Shown here: one piece after another, positions 519-43,680 of the stretch
Layout of the letters: each line of letters begins with the position of its first letter
Numbering within the stretch: position 1 is the first letter of the stretch
From: a virus
Taxonomy: Duplodnaviria; Caudoviricetes
Virus record (IMG/VR): IMGVR_UViG_3300043764_000039
Location: 1-51,592 of that record
Length of the DNA: 51,592 nucleotides
Direction: 5' to 3' (one strand)
Position numbers and translations under genes: made by a program
The notes under the pieces: generated by a model
What the model saw: the letters and a program-made list of their open reading frames with translations, nothing else
What the model was told of the DNA's origin: nothing
Database searches by the model: none

Positions 519-1772
519 TCACGACACAGCTCGAAGCTGCGGCTGACCAGCAGCAACGAGAGCCGACCGCACCGACTCCACCACCTCCGGGCCAGCGTGC
601 TGGTACAGCCACGTGACCGTCGAACCACGGTCGTGCCCCATGATCACCTGAACGTCCTTCTCCGGCACCCCGGCGTCCTTCAGCCGCGTCGCGAACCGGT
701 GACGCAGGTCATGAGGCGTCGGCCACCACTCCATGCGTCCCGTCTCCTGGTTGAGCACCTTCCGCGCGACACCCGCATCCTGGATCGCCTTGATCCACAC
801 CCGCCGGAAGTTGTGCCGCGACAGCACACCCTTGCGCGGCCCGACGAACAGCAGTTCCTCGGGACGCAGGTCCGTACCGTCGCCGACTTCCGACTGCGTC
901 GCCACCGGATGCCACCGCTCAACCATCGCATGCACGGCCGCCATCGCTGTCGGCGTCAGCGGCACCGTGCGGAAGCCGGCGTTCGTCTTCGGCGCCGCCT
1001 GCCGGAACAGCTTGCTGTCGTCCTCGGAGATGATCTCCTTGACGCTGGCGGTCGCCCCCTCCCGGTCGACGTTGCACAGCCGCAGGCCCGTGTACTCGCC
1101 CCAGCGCATCCCCGTCTCGTCCGCGAAGTCGAACAGCGGCTGGTAGTACTCCGGCAGGTTGGCGCGGATCAGCGTGGCCTGCTCATCGGTCGGCGGGGCC
1201 AGCTCCTCGGAGTGCCTCGCGGGCGGTGCTTCCAGCTCGATGCCGAAGGTCGGGTTGCTGCTGATGCGCTTGTCGAGGATCGCGGCCTGGCACATCTTCC
1301 GCATGAACTCCAGCACCTTCTTGCGGGTGTGGTAGCCCTTCACCTCGTTCTGCAGCCAGTCGTCGAGGTCGATGAAGCCGATGCTCGCCAGGGGCCACGC
1401 GCCCCACTTCGGCTGGACGTGGACACTCCAGATCGACTCCTTGCGGCCGCGCGTGGTCGGCCGGCCCTTCTTCTGCTGGGTCTTCCACCACGTCGCGTGG
1501 AAGTCCGCGATCGTCATCTGTCCGCGCTTCGGGTCCAGGTAGGTGCCCTGTCGGACCGTCGTGCGGACCTGGTCGAGGAAGGCGTCCGCCTCCCCCTTCT
1601 TCTCGAAGTTCCGCGCCTTCTGCTTGCCGTCCGGCCCGCGGTACCGGGCCTGCCAGGCTCCGATGCAGTCACGGCGCTTCTTGCGGTCGCCCGGGAACTC
1701 CTCCAGGCAGAGCTTGCAGCCGCACGACTTCGAACGGATCTGGCGCGGGTTGTTGAGCGCCCTACGAGGCAA
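519..1772 (-). CDS. int: Tyrosine integrase
   Basis: TGMRWGE, HDLRH, MGH and Tyr catalytic motifs; N-terminal WQARYR arm-binding region; TTG start at 1772 chosen (ORF open to 1883). Confidence 0.95.
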   Translation of the reverse strand: MPRRALNNPRQIRSKSCGCKLCLEEFPGDRKKRRDCIGAWQARYRGPDGKQKARNFEKKGEADAFLDQVRTTVRQGTYLDPKRGQMTIADFHATWWKTQQKKGRPTTRGRKESIWSVHVQPKWGAWPLASIGFIDLDDWLQNEVKGYHTRKKVLEFMRKMCQAAILDKRISSNPTFGIELEAPPARHSEELAPPTDEQATLIRANLPEYYQPLFDFADETGMRWGEYTGLRLCNVDREGATASVKEIISEDDSKLFRQAAPKTNAGFRTVPLTPTAMAAVHAMVERWHPVATQSEVGDGTDLRPEELLFVGPRKGVLSRHNFRRVWIKAIQDAGVARKVLNQETGRMEWWPTPHDLRHRFATRLKDAGVPEKDVQVIMGHDRGSTVTWLYQHAGPEVVESVRSALVAAGQPQLRAVS

Positions 1773-2025
1773 CGTAGGCCCCTTCGCTGGTGTGCCGTTG
1801 AACGGGCACCCCAAAGACACGAACAGGCGCCCCACAGAAGCAGCTTGCCCCATCGCGGGGCTGCGGGATGCCAAGTTCGGCAAGGATCATCCGGACCAGC
1901 GCGAGGCTGCTGGCATAGCTGAGGCCGGCCGGGATGGTGACGATGAAGAGGTCGTGCGGCTCGACAGTGACGCGCCTGTAGGGCCTGACGATTGGCTTGA
2001 CGGTCTGGTGGACGATGGTGCACAT
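1762..2025 (-). CDS. Small hypothetical protein between repressor and integrase (CFCG motif)
   Basis: ORF overlapping int start; start uncertain (2025 or 2055). Confidence 0.65.
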   Translation of the reverse strand: MCTIVHQTVKPIVRPYRRVTVEPHDLFIVTIPAGLSYASSLALVRMILAELGIPQPRDGASCFCGAPVRVFGVPVQRHTSEGAYVAS

Positions 2026-2205: not shown

Positions 2206-2574
2206 TCAGTCGATGTCCCGGGCGGCGAGTGCGCCCATCTGGAGCTCGACGATGCGCTGTTCCTCTGCGGAGAGCTTGCGGTAGAGCTCGAGGATGCGCT
2301 GCTCGGCGTCGGGGCTGAGCTGGCCAGGGGTGCGCCGGTTGGCGGCTGCGAAGACCCGGTCGCGCGGCTCGGAGAGCGCATCGGCGAGCTTGTCGCAGGA
2401 TCGCCGAGAGGGGACGCGGATCCCGTTCGCCCAGGCATTGACGGCGGAGATGGACACGCCGGCTCGGCGCGCGATCTCGGTCTGAGTCAGCTCGGGACGT
2501 GCGTCCTGGACTCGCCGGATCAGCTGCGGGAGCGTCTCGCTACTCGCGTCAACCGTGTCCATGTCGGCAAGCAT
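2206..2574 (-). CDS. XRE-family HTH immunity repressor (no S24 protease domain)
   Basis: LTQTEIARRAGVSISAVNAWANG HTH; divergent from Cro-like gene. Confidence 0.88.
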   Translation of the reverse strand: MLADMDTVDASSETLPQLIRRVQDARPELTQTEIARRAGVSISAVNAWANGIRVPSRRSCDKLADALSEPRDRVFAAANRRTPGQLSPDAEQRILELYRKLSAEEQRIVELQMGALAARDID

Positions 2575-3066: not shown

Positions 3067-3311
3067 GCGTCGCCGCCACGCTCCCCGTCCCCCTGCTCAC
3101 GCAGTCGGAGCTTGAGACGTACTACCGCGTCTCGGACTGGACCGTGAACAAGTGGGTCCGCGAGGGCTGCCCCGTCGAGCGACTCCGGAGCGGCAGCCGC
3201 CGCTTCGACCTGGACAAGGTCCGGGCGTGGCACGCCGGCGAGGACGGCGGGGCGGCCAAGCAGGCCATGGCCGCCCGATCCCAGCGCGCGCTGTCGCGCC
3301 GCTCCGCCTGA
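3063..3311 (+). CDS. xis: Excisionase-like winged-helix protein
   Basis: LLTQSELETYYRVSDWTVNKW...RRFDLDKV pattern; ATGA overlap. Confidence 0.75.
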   Translation: MSVAATLPVPLLTQSELETYYRVSDWTVNKWVREGCPVERLRSGSRRFDLDKVRAWHAGEDGGAAKQAMAARSQRALSRRSA

Positions 3312-3403
3312 CCCACCCCCAATGCGTGGGCGGGCCGCCCCGGATTGCGACCCCGGGGGCGACCCAGAGCCCACCACCCCACCCAAGAAGGAGGAGGCAG
3401 GCC

Positions 3404-15297: not shown

Positions 15298-15552
15298 ATG
15301 CCCCACCCGTCCCGCCGCCCGCGCCTCTACGGCATGCCACTCACCGACCGCGAACTCCAGGTCCTACGGCTCGTCGCCAACGGCCGCGGGAATCCCGCCA
15401 TCGCCGCCGAGCTGTACCTGTCCACGGCCACCGTCAAGAGCCACCTGCAGCGGATCCGGGCCAAGCTCGGCGCCCGTGACCGGGCGCACGCCGCAGCACT
15501 CGGCATGGCACACGGGCTGCTCGAGCGCGGGGACGTCCAGCGGGCCGCGTGA
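15298..15552 (+). CDS. Stand-alone LuxR-type HTH regulator
   Basis: LTDRELQVL...IAAELYLSTATVKSH...KLGARDR. Confidence 0.9.
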   Translation: MPHPSRRPRLYGMPLTDRELQVLRLVANGRGNPAIAAELYLSTATVKSHLQRIRAKLGARDRAHAAALGMAHGLLERGDVQRAA

Positions 15553-17426: not shown

Positions 17427-17735
17427 ATGACCGACCACCGCGCCGAAGCCCTGCGCCTCATCGCCGAATCCCACGAGATCATCCGCCCGAACGACGAAGG
17501 GCACTGCGAGGCCGACCGACTGCTCGCCGAAGCCCAGGTCCACGCCACCCTCGCGCTCTCCGCCCCGACCGTGGAGACGCCGAAGGGCGATGACCTGCTC
17601 GTCGTCCTGCTCGACTCCATCGCCTCCTTCCAGCAGACGGCACGGCTCGCCAGCCTGCAGCACGCGCAGATGCGCCGCTACCTCGCCGAGCACCTCCTCA
17701 ACTCGCTGACCGCGGCTGGTGTCAGCGGCTACTGA
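17427..17735 (+). CDS. Hypothetical protein
   Basis: SD AAGGAG; EAQVHATLAL. Confidence 0.7.
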   Translation: MTDHRAEALRLIAESHEIIRPNDEGHCEADRLLAEAQVHATLALSAPTVETPKGDDLLVVLLDSIASFQQTARLASLQHAQMRRYLAEHLLNSLTAAGVSGY

Positions 17736-17910
17736 CCCCGACGTGACGCCCGTCAACGCCCGCTGAGCTGCGGCGACTTGACCGTCACGCAATCCCCTGA
17801 CGTACCGTCGCAAACCCTGCTATTCTGCCCAAACAACCGCAAAAAGAACGGGCCCACCAAGGAGACTCGAACTCTCCCGGCGGGCCCTGACCACAGGAGA
17901 CCTACCTCCC

Positions 17911-18834
17911 ATGGCTGTCGCACAGACTACTGCGACCAGCGGCGTGACGGCGCACAGGCCCGTCATGACGCCCGCTGGCCGCCCCCGCAAGCGGAAGCGC
18001 CCGGCCAGCTACTGGCTCGCCGTCATCGCCGCCAGCTCCACCATCGCCCTCACCAGCGTGACGTTCTGGCTCTCGTACGAGGCGCTCCACGACCTCGCAG
18101 CCGGCCACCACCTCACCAATGCCCGCGCCTGGGCATGGCCCGCCACCATCGACGCGTTCATCGTCGTCGGTGAAGTCCTGATCCTGCGCGCCTCGTTGCT
18201 GCGCCGGATCGACTGGCTCGCGGTCGCCCTGGTCGCGCTCGGCTCCCTCGGCTCGATCATCCTGAACATCGTGTCTGTCGGCGCGCACGTCGACGGCACG
18301 ACCCGGGTGGTCGCCGCCGTCCCGCCGGTCGCCGCGCTGCTCGCGTTCACGGCGCTGATGCGGCAGATCTACCGGGCGCTCGCCAGCGACGAGGAGGCCC
18401 CGCGCGGCGATGAGGCCCTGACGCCCGTCAACGGCCCGTCCGATCAGGCGATTCCGCCGGCCGTGGAGCCCCGGCCGACGGCCGTCACCGCGCCGCCGCT
18501 GCCCCCGATGCCGCCCGCGCCGCCGGTCCTGCCGCCGGTCGCCCCGCAGACCACGGCGCAGCAGCCGCCCGCCGTCGCGCCCACCCAGGCCCCGGCCGCC
18601 CCGGCGCCGATCGTCTACGGCGACCCGCGGTGCGCCGTCATCCGCCCGCTGTACCGCGACGGCACCCCGCACGCCTCCCGCCCCGGCACCGCCACCATGC
18701 GGCAAGCGCTCATCGACGCCGGCTACGGCCCCGTCAGCGACGGCATGATCCGCGGCACCCTGCGCGCCGAGATCGAGCGCCACGAGCCACACCTGGCCGC
18801 CCTGCCGTCCGCCGTTCCGGCCCGCACCGCCTAA
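17911..18834 (+). CDS. DUF2637/SpdA-like membrane protein with Pro-rich linker and C-terminal putative DNA-binding domain
   Basis: FWLSYEALHDLA...AWAWPATID...VPPVAAL; four TM segments. Confidence 0.8.
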   Translation: MAVAQTTATSGVTAHRPVMTPAGRPRKRKRPASYWLAVIAASSTIALTSVTFWLSYEALHDLAAGHHLTNARAWAWPATIDAFIVVGEVLILRASLLRRIDWLAVALVALGSLGSIILNIVSVGAHVDGTTRVVAAVPPVAALLAFTALMRQIYRALASDEEAPRGDEALTPVNGPSDQAIPPAVEPRPTAVTAPPLPPMPPAPPVLPPVAPQTTAQQPPAVAPTQAPAAPAPIVYGDPRCAVIRPLYRDGTPHASRPGTATMRQALIDAGYGPVSDGMIRGTLRAEIERHEPHLAALPSAVPARTA

Positions 18835-18843
18835 CCCGCCGCC

Positions 18844-19005
18844 GTGGACGCCCTCCTGTGGGCGATCCCCGCTGTGCTGGCGCTCGCCGCACTCACCCTC
18901 GCCGTCCTGCCCCGCCAGGACGCGGTGCTGATGCTGCGCGCCTTCGCCGGCCTGTGGATCGCCGCCCTCGTGCTCGTCATCCCGCTGCTGCTCTCCAGGA
19001 GCTGA
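18844..19005 (+). CDS. 53-aa two-TM protein
   Basis: MDALLWAIPAVLALAAL...; below ORF-track cutoff. Confidence 0.6.
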   Translation: MDALLWAIPAVLALAALTLAVLPRQDAVLMLRAFAGLWIAALVLVIPLLLSRS

Positions 19006-19011
19006 CCCGCC

Positions 19012-19338
19012 ATGCCTCTCGACCTCGCGGCGCTGCGCCCTGCCTACAACGGCACCGCCCTGGCCGCTGCTGCCGCCATCACCACGCCCTACTGGGCGCA
19101 CGACGTCCTCGCCAGCATCGCCGCCAGCGGCGACGGGTCCGGTCCGCTCGGCGCCACCGCCTTCGGTCTCGCCATCGCCGCCATCGCCGACCGGACCATG
19201 CGCTTCCCGGATCGCGACGGCCGCGTCCACGACCTGTGGCTGCCCCGCGTCGCCCTGTTCACCGTCGCCCTCGGCCCGCTGTACAGCCCGCACACCGCCG
19301 CCCTGATGCTCAACTTCCTCGCCGGAGTCGTCTCGTGA
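19012..19338 (+). CDS. Membrane protein
   Basis: Hydrophobic segments, SD AGGAG. Confidence 0.7.
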   Translation: MPLDLAALRPAYNGTALAAAAAITTPYWAHDVLASIAASGDGSGPLGATAFGLAIAAIADRTMRFPDRDGRVHDLWLPRVALFTVALGPLYSPHTAALMLNFLAGVVS

Positions 19339-19892
19339 ACGTCACCATCACCCTGGGCGGCGTGGCCGTCGGCCTGATCCTGATCATGCGCCAGTTCCTC
19401 CCCGCAACCTGGGCGCTCCTCAAGCTCAAGGCCGGCAACCGCGGCCACGGCCACCACCACGAGGGCGACGCCCCGGCCCCGGCCCGGTTCAACATCCGCG
19501 AGCACGTGCCGTTCCTCCTCGGCGCGACCGTCGGCATGCTCGCCATCGCCTGCCCGGGCGGGTTCATCGGCATCGCCGCCGCGAAGATCGTCGGCTTCAG
19601 CAACACCGCCGGCGACAAGGTCCTCGCCGCCGGAGCCGGAGGCACCACCACCGCCGTCACCCGGCACGCCGCCGCCACCATGACCCAGTACGGCGCCCTC
19701 GTCACCGTCCTGCTCGTCTCCGCCGTCATCATCCTGCGCAAGCTCCTCGACAAGAAGGCCCGCGGCCAGCTCGGCTCCGGCATCTGGTGCGGCTCCACCC
19801 TCGGCCTCTCGGCGGGCGCGGCCGGGCTGCTCGGCTCCGTGCTCATCCCCGCGGCCAACCAGCTCGGTCACCTGATCGGCGGCCAGGCGTGA
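19335..19892 (+). CDS. Multi-TM protein (spread-protein-like)
   Basis: About four TM segments, GTGA overlaps. Confidence 0.75.
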   Translation: MNVTITLGGVAVGLILIMRQFLPATWALLKLKAGNRGHGHHHEGDAPAPARFNIREHVPFLLGATVGMLAIACPGGFIGIAAAKIVGFSNTAGDKVLAAGAGGTTTAVTRHAAATMTQYGALVTVLLVSAVIILRKLLDKKARGQLGSGIWCGSTLGLSAGAAGLLGSVLIPAANQLGHLIGGQA

Positions 19893-20455
19893 AGGCCGGC
19901 TGGCGGATCCGGCGCCTGTCCGACGGCTCCGCGCTCGTCGCCCGCCGCGTCGGCCGGGCGTTCGCCCCAGTCGACGCCGACGGCGAACTGCGGCTGCTCG
20001 CCACCGCCGCCCGGTCCGGTACCGCCCTGTGGGTCGGCAACGGCATCCTCGGCAGCGCGCACCCCTCGCCGCTGTGGCTCGTCGGCGGCACCTGCGCCTG
20101 GTGCGTCGCCGCGTGGCGGGCCGAGCCCGACGCCGAGGAGCAGCCCGCGAAGCAGGCCGCCGCCGGGTCGGTGCACACCGACGCCGAGATCTATGCCTCC
20201 GCCGTCGAGCACCTGCGCGAGCTGATCGGCGACCGTCGCGCGGTGCTCCTCGGCGAAGTGCTGGCCGACTGGCAGGCGCACGGCTGGGTCGGCCAGGTGC
20301 CGGCTGCCGAGCTCGGCCGCCAGCTCCAGCGCCGCGGCATCCCCGTGCGCCCGTCCGTGAAGGTCGCCGGATCGGTCGGGCCGGGCGTGCACCGGGACGA
20401 CCTGCCGGTCGTCGCCGAGCCCCTCCCCGAGGCCCCTGCCGTGGCCGCCGGGTAG
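19889..20455 (+). CDS. Membrane-anchored protein with C-terminal winged-helix-like domain, no ATPase
   Basis: Two TM-like segments then VLLGEVLADW...LQRRGIPVRPSVKV...GVHRDDL. Confidence 0.65.
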   Translation: MKAGWRIRRLSDGSALVARRVGRAFAPVDADGELRLLATAARSGTALWVGNGILGSAHPSPLWLVGGTCAWCVAAWRAEPDAEEQPAKQAAAGSVHTDAEIYASAVEHLRELIGDRRAVLLGEVLADWQAHGWVGQVPAAELGRQLQRRGIPVRPSVKVAGSVGPGVHRDDLPVVAEPLPEAPAVAAG

Positions 20456-20516
20456 CAGGTAGAGCCGCAGGTCACAGCGCCTCTACCTACCCCGGCTACC
20501 TACCTGACTACCTACC
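20451..20516. repeat. CTACCTACC x3 plus inverted GGTAG copies
   Basis: Copies at 20483, 20496, 20508; AGGTAGAG (20457) pairs with CTCTACCT (20481). Confidence 0.85.
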
Positions 20517-20529
20517 CCTGGAGACCCCG

Positions 20530-20628
20530 ATGCGCCGTCTGACCGCCGTCCTGACCGTCTGGTCCACCTGCCCGGACTGTGGCTGGTGGGCGCAGGAGGG
20601 CCACGTCTGCCACCCCGCCGACCGCTGA
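20530..20628 (+). CDS. 32-aa Zn-ribbon-like peptide
   Basis: SD GGAG; CPDCGW...HVC. Confidence 0.45.
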   Translation: MRRLTAVLTVWSTCPDCGWWAQEGHVCHPADR

Positions 20629-20677
20629 CCAACCCGCCGCCCCGGACCACTGCCCGGGGCGGCGCGCTTGCGAGAGG

Positions 20678-21052
20678 ATGAGCAGCATGAGCAGCAACTT
20701 CGGTGAGGCTATGCACCGCCTGCACACCGCCCCAGGCGTTGCGCGGGAGGAACTCGACGAGATCAAGGCTGGCATCATGCGCCTCGCTGGGGCGCAGGCC
20801 GCCGCCCTGGTGGGCGCATCCACGGCCGCGGCCGGGCTGGCGCAGGAAATGGCACGGCGCCGGGAGGAGGACGCGCGCCAGCGCCGCTGGTTCTTCGCCG
20901 ACGCACGCGACCAGGGCGTGTCGAAGGAGGACGCGGAGAAGATCCTCGCGGTGGCCTTCAGCGACGACGTCCTCTACGACCGGTCCTTCGCCGGCCCGTG
21001 GGACTTCGCCCACGCTGCGCTAAAGATCGTGGAGGCTCGCGGTGCCCGATGA
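20678..21052 (+). CDS. Hypothetical protein
   Basis: ORF with GC3 bias; start uncertain. Confidence 0.6.
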   Translation: MSSMSSNFGEAMHRLHTAPGVAREELDEIKAGIMRLAGAQAAALVGASTAAAGLAQEMARRREEDARQRRWFFADARDQGVSKEDAEKILAVAFSDDVLYDRSFAGPWDFAHAALKIVEARGAR

Positions 21053-21359
21053 TCTGTTGGCTTTTACCATCGCCAACCTGCAACGCGAGCTCGATGACAT
21101 GCTGTCCTTCAAGGACTTCATGGTGCAGAACGACGGCATCCCCGACCTGGGGATCACCGGAGAAGCCTACGCCCGAGCCGACCAGCCTCGAATCCGCCGG
21201 GCCGAACTTCGGCTGACGTTCCTCAACGACACGGTGCGGCCGTACCTGGGTACCGCTGGCCCAACCGGCCGAATCGCCGAGCAGCAACTGCGCCTTCTTG
21301 GAGCAGAGTTCGCAGACCGACCCGGCTACCGGCCCGAGTGGTCACCCGAGGAGAGCTGA
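21042..21359 (+). CDS. DUF6221-like protein
   Basis: C-terminal LRLLGAEFADRPGYRPEW. Confidence 0.7.
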   Translation: MPDDLLAFTIANLQRELDDMLSFKDFMVQNDGIPDLGITGEAYARADQPRIRRAELRLTFLNDTVRPYLGTAGPTGRIAEQQLRLLGAEFADRPGYRPEWSPEES

Positions 21360-21361
21360 CT

Positions 21362-21673
21362 GTGCGCTTCTTCCGCCGCCGCAGGCAGGCGCCCGCGCCC
21401 AGCCCGCTGGCCATCCAGGTGCTGGAGCACGACGTCTACGGCGAGGAGCCGCCAGCAGGCAGCGCAGCCGCTCTCGTGCTCGGCCTCCGCGCGTTGAGCG
21501 GCGCTGGCGTCACCAGCCGCGAGATGATGCACCGCATGACCTACTGCACCGCCGAGGGAACCATCCGAATCGGCACCGAGGCCATCGCCGTGATCTGCAA
21601 CCTCGAACCGCACGACGGCGACCAGCACCACGACATTGTCCACGGCGACTGGAGCACCGAACCCGAGGAGTGA
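21362..21673 (+). CDS. Hypothetical protein
   Basis: SD GAGGAG; IQVLEHDVYG. Confidence 0.65.
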   Translation: MRFFRRRRQAPAPSPLAIQVLEHDVYGEEPPAGSAAALVLGLRALSGAGVTSREMMHRMTYCTAEGTIRIGTEAIAVICNLEPHDGDQHHDIVHGDWSTEPEE

Positions 21674-23144: not shown

Positions 23145-23545
23145 GCGAGCATCCGGCGGTGGTGTTCCTGCGGCAGGCGCACGAGCAGGCAGAGGAGTTG
23201 GCGCGGGTGGCGACGCCCGGGCCGTGGATGCTGAACCTCGACGACGAGACGATCACGTCCGAGTTCGGCACGGTGGCGCGCCTGCGCGACTTCGTGCGCC
23301 TCATGACGAACGCGCAGGTCGAGGCCGACGCGCGCCTGATCACCGGCATGGCCGACCCGGCGGCGGTGTTGCGCCGGGTCGCGGCCGACCGGGAGCAGCT
23401 GGCCGAGCACGCCGATCGGCAGGGCGAGTGCCGGGTCTGCGCCGCGGAGGGCGAGTTCGGAGGGATCGCGTTCCTCGGGAACGTGCCGTGGCCGTGCGGT
23501 GTGTGGCTGCGACTCGCCGAGGGCTGGGGCTGGACGGTGCCGTGA
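23141..23545 (+). CDS. DUF6221-like protein
   Basis: ATPGPW, DPAAVLRRVAADR, WPC. Confidence 0.7.
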   Translation: MSEHPAVVFLRQAHEQAEELARVATPGPWMLNLDDETITSEFGTVARLRDFVRLMTNAQVEADARLITGMADPAAVLRRVAADREQLAEHADRQGECRVCAAEGEFGGIAFLGNVPWPCGVWLRLAEGWGWTVP

Positions 23546-24867
23546 CGACAGCGGCGACGGTCGTCCGGTACGAGCCGCGCGGCGCGACCCTCGAACTCTT
23601 CCGTCGCAAAGACACCGAGATCCTGCTGTCAGGCGCAGCAGGCACCGGCAAGAGCGTCGGCGCCCTGATGAAGCTGCACCTCGCCTGCCTGTCCACGCCG
23701 AAGGTCCGGGCGCTCATCGTCCGCAAGACCCACGCCTCGCTCACCGCCTCCACGCTGGTGACCTTCCGCCAGAAGGTCGCCGCCGAAGCCCTCGCGGCCG
23801 GGCACGTGCACTTCTACGGCGGATCAGCCCAGGAGCCGGCCAGCTTCCGGTACACCAACGGGTCGGTCATCGTCGTGGGCGGCCTCGACCGGGCAAGCCG
23901 ACTGCTGAGCACGGAGTTCGACCTGGTCTTCGTGGACGAGGCCGTCGAGGTGACAGAGGAAGACCTCGACACCATCGTCACCCGCCTCCGCAACGGCCGG
24001 ATGACCTATCAGCAGCTCATCATGGCCACCAACCCCGGGCCGCCGACGCACCATCTGAAGCTGCGCGCAGACTCGGGCCGCTGCCAGATCCTGTACAGCA
24101 AGCACGAGGACAACCCCCGCATGTACCAGGACGGGGAGTGGACCGAGTACGGGAAGTCGTACCTCGCACGCCTCGACAGCCTCGTCGGGGCCCGGTACGA
24201 GCGGATGCGCTGGGGCCGGTGGGTGGCCGCCGAGGGCCTGGTCTACGAGGGCTGGGACCCGGCCGTGCACCTCGTCGACCGGTCCGTCGTCCAGGCCGGG
24301 TGGTCAAGGTGGTGGACAGTCGACTTCGGGTACAGCAATCCGCTGGTCCTTCAGTGCTGGGCCGAGGACCCCGACGGCCGCCTGTACCTCTACAGGGAGA
24401 TCTACAAGACGAAGACGCTGGTCGAGGACCACGCCAAGCAGATCCTCGGCATCGTCGCGCCCAACGGCCAGTGGATCGAGCCCCGGCCACGCGCGGTGAT
24501 CTGCGACCACGACGCCGAGGACCGCGCCACCCTGGAGCGGCACCTCGGCATGGGCACCACGGCAGCAAAGAAGACCGTCAGCGACGGCATCCAAGCCGTG
24601 CAAGCCCGGCTACGGGCCGCCGGTGACGGCAAGCCACGACTGTTCATCTGCCGGGACGCCCTTGTGAGGCGCGATCAGGAGCTGGCGGACGCCAAGAAGC
24701 CGTGCAGCACGGTCGAGGAGGTCACCGGCTACGTGTGGGATGCGCAGCCCGGCAAGCAGCCGAAGGAAGCCCCGGTGAAGCAGGACGACCACGGCATGGA
24801 CGCGCTGCGGTACATGGTGGCCGAGCGGGACCTGGGCGGCCGGCCGAGCGTGCGCTGGGTGGGCTGA
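23542..24867 (+). CDS. terL: Terminase large subunit
   Basis: GAAGTGKS Walker A, FVDEA Walker B, TNP, DFGYSNP, DHGMDALRY. Confidence 0.95.
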   Translation: MTTAATVVRYEPRGATLELFRRKDTEILLSGAAGTGKSVGALMKLHLACLSTPKVRALIVRKTHASLTASTLVTFRQKVAAEALAAGHVHFYGGSAQEPASFRYTNGSVIVVGGLDRASRLLSTEFDLVFVDEAVEVTEEDLDTIVTRLRNGRMTYQQLIMATNPGPPTHHLKLRADSGRCQILYSKHEDNPRMYQDGEWTEYGKSYLARLDSLVGARYERMRWGRWVAAEGLVYEGWDPAVHLVDRSVVQAGWSRWWTVDFGYSNPLVLQCWAEDPDGRLYLYREIYKTKTLVEDHAKQILGIVAPNGQWIEPRPRAVICDHDAEDRATLERHLGMGTTAAKKTVSDGIQAVQARLRAAGDGKPRLFICRDALVRRDQELADAKKPCSTVEEVTGYVWDAQPGKQPKEAPVKQDDHGMDALRYMVAERDLGGRPSVRWVG

Positions 24868-42837: not shown

Positions 42838-43680
42838 ATGGAGTACACCCCGATCCTCGGCCGGCTCGTCGAACACGACCCGCGGTCCCTTGCGTACGCG
42901 CACGGCGTGCTGCCCAACTCGGCGATTCAGTCGGTCGACTGGCAGCGCCGGATACCGATCCTGGACCAGGGCCAGCTCGGCTCATGCACCGGCAACGCTG
43001 CGACCGGCTGCCTGGGCACGGACTCGGCAGGCCGCACCGCGGCGACGAGCGTCACCATCTCGGCGGCCGGCGCGGCAGCGTCGAACGGCCTGTTCGCCCC
43101 GGGCACCGTGGCCCTGGACGAGGTGTTCGCGGTGCAGCTGTACAGCCTCGCCACCACGCTGGACAGCATCCCGGGGTCCTATCCGCCGGACGACACCGGC
43201 AGCAGCGGTCTCGGCGTGGCGAAGGCGCTCCAGGCGCTGGGCTTGGCGACCGGCTACACGCACGGGTTCAGCATGGCCGCGCTCGACTCGGCGCTCCAGT
43301 CCGGCCCGGTGCTAATTGGCATCCCGTGGCTCCAGAGCATGTTCACTCCGGACGCGGACGGCCGGGTCCAGGTCGACCAGACCAGCCCGGTCGCTGGTGG
43401 CCACGAGCTGGAGCTGTGCAAGTACGACGCTGCCACCGGCGAGTACTGGGTGGCCAACTCCTGGGGCACCTCGTGGGGCGCCAACGGCTACGGCTACTTC
43501 GCCGCGGCGGACCTGCAGTGGCTGCTGTCGCAGCAGGGTGACGTGACGGTGCCCGCGTGGGCAGCGGCCCCGGCGCCTGTCCCGGTGCCCCCGCAGCCGA
43601 CCCCGGCGCCGACGCCCGATCTGGCGGACGTCACGCTCGCGGCCGCGGCCCGGGCCTGGCTGACCGAGAAGGGGCTCTGA
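42838..43680 (+). CDS. Papain-like (C1) cysteine peptidase
   Basis: [23 protein letters not shown]. Confidence 0.88.

Follow-up and report, generated by a model that had tools for sequence, protein, structure and literature searches.

A phased repeat array and a predicted winged-helix protein close a membrane-protein cassette of Streptomyces/Kitasatospora-type phages: a candidate membrane tether for phage DNA

Which protein reads the short repeats that close a membrane-protein cassette in the virus record IMGVR_UViG_3300043764_000039, and what would the pair do for the phage? The IMG/VR record (51,592 bp, G+C content 64–76%, completeness estimated at 97%) was analyzed as a whole and is further referred to as the window. 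Five open reading frames (ORFs A–E) lie head to tail on its plus strand, and the last of them, ORF E, is followed by the repeats. A sequence-only reading had proposed here a plasmid-style spread module with an SpdA-like protein (A), a motor-less TraB-like protein (E) and clt-like repeats. What had been observed was for the most part confirmed. As family names, SpdA and TraB are wrong; the clt-like idea survives because homologous modules carry repeats and the repeat core changes with the lineage of the winged helix. The features at the center of the argument are listed below.

19889–20455, plus strand: ORF E, 188 amino acids (aa), studied by an AlphaFold2 (AF2) model and a family alignment; phrog_5650
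20451–20464, plus strand: inverted core copies GGTAG (20451–20455) and GGTAGAG (20458–20464)
20465–20474, minus strand: central conserved word CCGCAGGTCA (TGACCTGCGG on the minus strand)
20483–20516, plus strand: three exact direct copies of CTACCTACC at 20483, 20496 and 20508 (spacing 13 and 12 bp)

The N-terminal part of E forms three helices (residues 5–77, 19901–20119), with a weakly hydrophobic hairpin closing with the conserved AWCVAAWRA. After a linker follows the predicted winged helix (residues 98–168, 20180–20392), which contains the conserved IPVR...GVHRDDL. The AF2 model was built from a 33-row alignment and has a mean predicted local distance difference test (pLDDT) score of 79.6, with 93–98 in the C-terminal blocks. 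Secondary structure assigned by DSSP consists of helices 98–113, 121–130 and 139–148 and strands 118–120, 154–159 and 162–168. The resulting order H-S-H-H-S-S corresponds to the winged helix-turn-helix topology H1-S1-H2-H3-S2-wing-S3. No Walker A motif was found in E. The earlier description of a motor-less protein with a winged-helix-like C-terminus is thereby supported. Many of the neighbors listed by Foldseek in PDB are winged helices (ScpB, AhrC/ArgR, HlyU, MexR). The best of them has an expectation value of 0.34 and none is at or below 0.001, hence no winged-helix subfamily can be named. In BFVD, only VWB gp26 was matched (5e-8). The search of PDB sequences with the E profile yielded nothing under 0.049, and the protein Atlas search with the winged-helix part yielded unnamed actinobacterial clusters only, at 0.76. 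No Pfam family, FtsK_gamma and Trans_reg_C included, matched E at expectation values up to 1.

The E family corresponds to phrog_5650, whose first 200–260 profile positions match VWB gp26 and Kromp gp85. It is a large family of stand-alone proteins, with 694 cluster representatives; 35 relatives of near-equal length were found. Homologues of E are present in 56 of 201 sampled genomes of Streptomycetaceae, the family of Kitasatospora humi (genome G001, holding locus L004).

In the full record, CTACCTACC occurs exactly three times, always on the plus strand, and a control word does not occur; with at most one mismatch there are seven matches against 2.79 expected. Both the number and the spacing of the direct copies are as had been claimed, and the inverted GGTAG copies noticed at the same time are also in place. 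The first of these overlaps the TAG stop codon of E, and the same layout of inverted copies is seen in loci L004, L011–L015 and L018. The region 20440–20535 folds into an RNA hairpin no better than its shuffled versions (z −1.18; 26 of 200 shuffles fold equally well), and no Rfam family scored above its gathering score. CGCAGGTCA is found four times in the window (703, 9194, 20466 and 30234, all on the plus strand). For the 8-mer, both orientations together give 10 occurrences; in 200 shuffles the mean was 3.5 and the maximum 10.

Arrays in relatives were studied in 64 sources of E homologues: the window, 57 viral contigs, four genome contigs, VWB and Kromp. This set contains near-duplicates (e.g. 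L023/L024, L042/L043, L045/L046). Within 100 nt past the E stop codon, at least four identical 5-mers spaced by 9–15 bp were found in 17/64 loci vs 201/26,158 control windows, and at least three in 32/64 vs 1,848/26,158. A permissive scan with one mismatch per repeat was discarded, being swamped by codon periodicity. The mean spacing is 11.5 bp (range 9–13, 80 intervals). Exact CTAC chains of at least four copies are present in 19 loci, all at positions −126 to +43 relative to the E stop codon and none elsewhere on either strand. The array of VWB consists of seven TCTCCC-type units, and that of Kromp, of five TCTAC(C/G) units. In loci without a downstream array, the array sits inside the 3'-end of the E ORF, whatever the reading frame. 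Homologous modules thus also carry repeats at this position, as the clt-like reading requires.

The arrays share a common plan: lineage-specific cores of 5–7 bp, direct, inverted or both, flank a conserved word TGACCTGCG, and the first core copy lies at a fixed distance from this word. Its variant TGACC(T/A)GCG is found between −200 and +130 of the E stop codon in 54/64 loci, with 0.20 expected per 330 bp. The counts in 49 distinct sequences are T42 G40 A C C T42/A7 G C46 G43, positions 0–6 being partly forced by the search pattern. The core types are CTACC, TCTCCC, CTACA/CCACA, GCTAC/GTAGC, CAACA/GTTG, GCAACA/TGTTGC, CCTAG, GTAGA and tandem GCTACA. Inverted GGTAG precedes direct CTACC in the lineage of the window because the whole element is reversed relative to the gene.

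Eight related arrays were compared in pairs. Core columns differ in 55 of 980 comparisons (5.6%) and other columns in 592 of 1,652 (35.8%), while in the E gene next to these arrays third codon positions differ in 813 of 2,800 (29%). This pattern indicates, at the level of sequence comparison, that the cores are under purifying selection while the spacers drift. All copies within an array switch the core together, and this concerted change favors a trans-acting reader. The sequence-only reading had suggested checking whether the repeat co-varies with the winged helix. On a winged-helix tree (quick IQ-TREE, 63 rows, 80 columns, many forks being unresolved), the ten core classes require 10 changes, the minimum being 9; the mean for shuffled classes is 32.4, and none of 200 shuffles was as low. 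The CTACC class is spread over several lineages, and every other class forms one group. Such tracking is the pattern that would be expected of a protein–site pair.

In OnionKnight, genes for A, a small transmembrane (TM) protein and D are followed, in the place of E, by gp60, a 127-aa hairpin protein with no winged helix. There TGCAGGTCA is kept and the repeat array is absent. In several lineages (L021, L029, L033, L042, L056) the E ORF runs beyond the array into a conserved tail with REGMTIINDPADRHRAHSLKK, and a similar peptide also ends OnionKnight gp60 and proteins of L007, L055 and L057 (cf. L002 5435–5818). In L003 (Kromp), L034, L050, L058, L062 and L002, a hairpin rich in G+C (GGGACGGCCGCC...GGCGGCCG...) is conserved 60–150 nt past the end of the array or gene, and behind it come CCCATCCCG-N-CACGAGACAGGAG and a small gene. 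This element may represent a terminator plus a translation start region.

What such a pair might do depends on its neighbors. The other members of the cassette and the gene that follows the array are:

17911–18834, plus strand: ORF A, 307 aa, DUF2637 membrane protein (Pfam PF10935, 52.8 bits; phrog_733, 1.2e-44)
18844–19005, plus strand: ORF B, 53 aa, two hydrophobic helices (hydropathy maxima 2.48 and 2.46; G+C content at third codon positions, GC3, 0.96)
19012–19338, plus strand: ORF C, 108 aa, Ala-rich, weakly hydrophobic (hydropathy maxima 1.06–1.23)
19335–19892, plus strand: ORF D, 185 aa, four-TM protein (four hydrophobic segments, 1.68–2.21; phrog_16379, 1.2e-24)
20530–20628, plus strand: ORF F, 32 aa, Cys/His-rich (CPDC...C.H), with a ribosome-binding site (RBS) GGAGA at 20521–20525 and the ATG at 20530, right behind the last repeat

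GC3 of ORFs A–E is 0.93–0.98. The start of D overlaps the stop of C, and the stop of D overlaps the start of E (GTGA). Hydropathy was calculated by a 19-residue Kyte–Doolittle scan, for which the usual threshold is 1.5–1.6. Four segments were found in A (1.76–2.35), two in B (2.5) and four in D (1.68–2.21), and the maxima of C (1.23) and E (0.99) are below the threshold. Of the five membrane proteins claimed previously, A, B and D are clear cases, whereas C and E are only weakly hydrophobic. In the E family, a segment of at least 1.6 is present in 74/171 members, and one of at least 1.2, in 153/171. Hence, judging by sequence, membrane anchoring is plausible for the family and weak for the copy in the window. 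The Walker A pattern GxxxxGK[ST] does not occur in A–F. These proteins have no matches in NCBIfam and PADLOC, and therefore a known defence system is without support.

According to crude gene maps, the order in most loci is a protein of 270–480 aa with 3–5 hydrophobic segments, a two-TM protein of about 50 aa (seen at the position of B in many related loci), a C-family protein, the four-TM D, and E. The gene immediately 5' of the E homologue encodes D in 28/64 loci by tblastn and in 29/64 by jackhmmer; tblastn of D against phages gave nothing at 1e-3. Complex prediction for D and E residues 1–95 had a score of 0.00, which weighs neither for nor against binding. The C family, with no Pfam match for ORF C, was found by jackhmmer in 33/64 loci, where its members have 0–3 hydrophobic segments. 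Homologues of F stand straight after the array in six loci (L011–L014, L017, L044), and its membership in the module is uncertain. The gene following the array often encodes a small Cys-rich protein: the 32-aa CPDC...C.H peptide in the lineage of the window and, in other lineages (L042 6510–6761 and relatives), a protein of 82–86 aa starting with MPYEYxCxxC, with a sub-threshold match to Zn_ribbon_8 (13.8 bits, cut-off 34.4).

ORF A had been called SpdA-like and proposed for comparison with DUF2637. The DUF2637 match is well above the cut-off (22.8) and covers residues 50–156. The AF2 model contains helices 32–65, 71–97, 102–122 and 129–159 (residues 32–159, 18004–18387), a Pro-rich disordered linker and a C-terminal three-helix domain (residues 239–297, 18625–18801; pLDDT of the block 89–97). 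The gene call in the database begins further in (289 aa), and phrog_733 bears the label "excisionase". A has 444 homologues at expectation values of at most 0.001, PF10935 being present in all 120 matches listed, and Foldseek against PDB gave no significant neighbor (best 2.7). In the plasmid collection, tblastn of A found DUF2637 genes on three Streptomyces plasmids of 7–8 kb. The two that were inspected carry an FtsK/SpoIIIE (TraB-type) gene, a small gene and the DUF2637 gene in that order. A one-mismatch repeat copy CTACCTCCC is located at 17902–17910, just 5' of the ATG of A and over the likely RBS region; it may be due to chance.

As described in the available parts of PMC4170104, SpdA and SpdA2 have 117–163 aa, a conserved N-terminal DNA-binding region and a palindrome of 12 bp, sps (CGTCACGTGACG), within the gene or next to it. 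The sole copy of this palindrome in the whole window has two mismatches, lies at 43537, far from A, and compares with 8.38 expected by chance. SpdB2, in turn, is described as an oligomeric four-TM DNA-binding membrane protein; the same source mentions putative SpdB2 homologues of actinophages and refers for them to the genome papers of phiC31 and VWB (PMC4447253, in part). Spread proteins of the SpdB2 type have a role in intramycelial spreading and pock formation and bind double-stranded DNA non-specifically. Since A is a four-helix DUF2637 protein whose plasmid kin adjoin TraB-type genes, and the size and palindrome of SpdA are lacking, A is of the SpdB/SpdB2 kind and not SpdA, pSVH1 SpdB2 itself having been compared by description. 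A shares with SpdB/SpdB2 of Streptomyces plasmids DUF2637 and four long helices, with plasmid homologues just behind traB, and differs in its own C-terminal three-helix domain. The link between SpdB2 and actinophages is thus already in print, as a remark in the part of PMC4447253 seen.

The first gene of the cassette is less uniform. DUF2637 is recognizable in the first protein of some loci only, and the C-terminal helix-turn-helix (HTH)-type domains there are varied. Among 20 ORFs taken as the first large membrane protein, Pfam matched DUF2637 above the cut-off in four and below it in one, MerR_1 in one (the A-like protein of L021, 26.9 bits), a glycosyltransferase in one and T5orf172 in one, the latter two being wrong or other ORFs. 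Six had sub-threshold HTH-type matches alone (one of them also DUF2637), and seven had no match. Therefore the first gene is not uniformly recognizable. A jackhmmer search seeded with the N-terminal domain of A recovered five loci only, and A-like proteins without the rest of the cassette are encoded in phiSASD1 and Dubu. We know of no phage copy with an established pock or spread function.

We give about an even chance to the explanation that E is the binding protein of the array and, together with the membrane cassette, tethers phage DNA. Under it, E would bind the array at the end of its own gene as a phased multimer: TGACCTGCG would nucleate the complex, and the lineage-specific cores of 5–7 bp, about 11.5 bp apart and here CTACC in both orientations, would flank it. 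The hairpin of E and/or the four-TM D would hold the nucleoprotein complex at the membrane, together with A. Such a tether might serve to pass phage DNA on to an Spd-like passage, or else to keep its replication or segregation attached to the membrane. Plasmid-like spreading between compartments is one possible purpose; a spreading role has been speculated for SpdB2 homologues (PMC4447253, in part). The candidate membrane link through D, whose gene overlaps the start of E and precedes it in 28–29 of 64 loci, and the hydrophobic segments in 74/171 E proteins support a tether, as far as sequence goes.

Several observations weigh against this explanation. Binding of the array by E is deduced from sequence and a predicted fold, and the copy of E in the window is weakly hydrophobic. 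Each non-CTACC core class arose once, and since every switch happened once, co-inheritance of the gene with adjacent DNA is sufficient to give the same pattern. The central word remains constant while the recognition helix of E varies, and OnionKnight retains the word with no winged helix. The site therefore probably has a second reader, which could be either a host factor or the C-terminal domain of A. OnionKnight agrees with the pairing of E and array, being a single example. Finally, the RBS of the following gene directly adjoins the array, and this would also fit a regulatory role.

By analogy, the layout is that of the TraB–clt system of Streptomyces plasmids minus the ATPase. In the parts of PMC3583192 seen, clt is described as short direct and inverted repeats, partly inside the 3'-end of the gene for a winged-helix translocase with two TM segments and bound through helix 3 of its winged helix. 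In pWTY27, TraA has two TM segments, and clt starts 16 bp inside traA. With TraB (TraA)–clt of pSVH1, pWTY27, pJV1 and pIJ101, E shares the C-terminal winged helix and repeats of 5–9 bp at the 3'-end of its own gene, and the window array has direct and inverted short repeats ending a winged-helix gene. These plasmids likewise encode Spd membrane proteins nearby, including a DUF2637 protein (PMC3583192, PMC4447253, both in part). The differences are the lack of an FtsK/SpoIIIE ATPase domain and of detectable sequence similarity in E, the phage context with terminase and tail genes, and the phasing of the repeats, which recur roughly every 11.5 bp with a conserved word at their center. Plasmid clt is required in cis for DNA transfer and is bound by its cognate protein.

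Small proteins with a DNA-binding domain acting on DNA at the membrane are exemplified by phi29 p16.7 and by ToxR, and in TubR–tubC and ParR–parC a protein coats phased repeats of 11–12 bp beside its own gene. However, p16.7 binds DNA without sequence specificity, the topology of ToxR is opposite, and the partner of TubR or ParR is a cytomotive nucleoside triphosphatase (NTPase). PDB searches gave no sequence match and no significant structural match between E and proteins of the p16.7, TubR, ParR or ToxR kinds.

The rival explanations depend in part on the place of the cassette in the phage. Pfam and PHROG scans covered 18 proteins of the window, most of its genes being outside these scans, and identified the following.

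519–1883, minus strand: integrase (PHROG scan)
2206–2562, minus strand: repressor (PHROG scan)
23488–24867: large terminase (PHROG scan)

A RecT-like protein and other early genes are encoded on the plus strand 3' of the integrase and repressor genes (PHROG scan), and the cassette lies about 1.7 kb ahead of the probable small terminase gene. With integrase, repressor and RecT upstream and terminase downstream, the region is the final early-gene block of a temperate Streptomyces/Kitasatospora-type phage. An 84-aa HTH protein of the LuxR/sigma-region-4 type is encoded at 15298–15552, 2.4 kb upstream of the cassette (phrog_3282 "sigma factor", 6e-11); it could be a phage regulator.

This position suggests the main rival, which is rather unlikely, namely transcription control at the early/late junction. 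E would be an ordinary, possibly membrane-sequestered, factor on phased direct repeats in the style of OmpR/PhoP, and would control its own gene, stop read-through or activate the genes toward the terminase. The place is a fitting one: the early genes end here, with the putative small terminase gene 1.7 kb further on, the array always lies at most about 150 bp before the next gene, and Streptomyces PhoP binds 11-nt direct-repeat units (PMC2275107, in part). However, in the window and most lineages the RBS and start codon are located about 5–15 nt past the last repeat, too close for a promoter to fit in between. Simple scans of 17600–21400 found neither a sigma-70-like promoter nor a terminator-like site. 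E lacks Trans_reg_C, the domain of OmpR/PhoB-type (ToxR-like) regulators, or any other Pfam match in the search above, and the tight translational coupling to four membrane proteins is left unexplained.

More doubtful is the strongest form of the plasmid analogy, a stripped-down spreading apparatus. In this case E would dock the genome by its array onto an SpdB-like passage, and phage DNA, be it a future prophage or a replicating genome, would cross hyphal cross-walls into adjacent compartments without virions. The motor, if one is needed at all, would come from the host or from a plasmid residing in it.

It is improbable that the array serves as a site of partition or an origin of replication, with E as an adaptor similar to ParR/TubR or Rep. 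Two blocks of phased 11–12-bp repeats around a central element beside a small winged-helix gene do resemble parC/tubC centromeres and iterons. The collection also contains plasmid CP146840.1 (L069, 7.9 kb), in which about ten ACCTGCC(C) copies at about 10–11 bp and inverted GGGCAGGCAGGCAGGTCA (3140–3340) follow an "AAA family ATPase" gene, the array beginning at its stop codon (TGACCTGCCC). In the same plasmid, the 8-mer GCAGGTCA/TGACCTGC is found seven times, and the core of the plasmid array resembles the phage central word TGACCTGCG. However, the phage has an integrase and a repressor and so does not need plasmid maintenance. No cytomotive partner NTPase was seen among the 18 window proteins scanned, a part of the window's genes, and E has one winged helix, whereas iteron initiators have two.

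We give an equally low probability to a reader of the array other than E, be it the helical domain at the C-terminus of A, a protein of the host or the TraB of a plasmid; the job of E would then be a different one. The constancy of TGACCTGCG across lineages with different recognition helices of E, its persistence in OnionKnight with A and no winged helix, and the varied HTH-type C-termini of A-like proteins, such as MerR_1 in L021, fit such a reader. On the other hand, the array follows the end of the E gene in every lineage, at times inside the ORF, the core classes track the winged-helix tree of E, and phiSASD1 and Dubu encode A-like proteins without the other members.

That E is a true TraB/FtsK derivative minus the ATPase domain is very improbable. 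Apart from the ATPase the domain order is the same, with an N-terminal membrane hairpin, a C-terminal winged helix and gene-end repeats, as in TraA of pWTY27 with its two TM segments and clt inside the gene (PMC3583192, in part). Yet the proposed comparison of E with TraB and FtsK_gamma was negative: hhalign with two plasmid TraB proteins gave a probability of 0.1%, and FtsK_gamma is among the absent Pfam matches. None of the 49 Foldseek PDB matches listed is described as FtsK. Among the best 150 of the 694 representatives, nearly all have 180–290 aa, and a search of 8,000 candidates for longer, fused relatives found none, though as evidence this is weak. Of seven long open frames fetched from around weak genome matches, six matched the domain hidden Markov model. 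These six were rejected as motor fusions, being ordinary TM-plus-winged-helix members of 250–350 aa in GC-rich stop-free frames. D and E had no tblastn matches in 72,556 plasmids, and the FtsK/SpoIIIE domain PF01580 was found neither in the 97%-complete record nor in five other viral records with E homologues. Because of these negative results for hhalign, plasmids and the motor domain, E is not, by sequence, a member of the TraB family; the likeness is one of layout. A cos or pac site was rejected, since the Kromp record is annotated as linear and its array is some 4.2 kb away from the record end.

The explanation we favor is that of E binding its own gene-end array, with the membrane cassette as a candidate partner in a tether. 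In the literature searched, some of it available in part, no description of the E family or its array was found, the only related statement being the remark on SpdB2 homologues in PMC4447253; both appear to be undescribed. Database annotation of the cassette is limited to "hypothetical" or "membrane protein". At the same time, the cassette is common (56/201 sampled genomes, 694 cluster representatives) and is present in cultivable phages (VWB gp24–26, Kromp gp82–85). A protein–array pair with visibly diversified specificity is a directly testable system, because the protein of each lineage can be set against the arrays of other lineages.

Streptomyces grows as multi-compartment hyphae, and to our knowledge the spread of phage infection or lysogeny within the mycelium is poorly understood. 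If E and its array indeed tether or move phage DNA, this would link phage biology to the unusual double-stranded DNA transfer of Streptomyces plasmids. If the spreading reading is true, the cassette would provide a bacterial virus with a virion-independent route from cell to cell.

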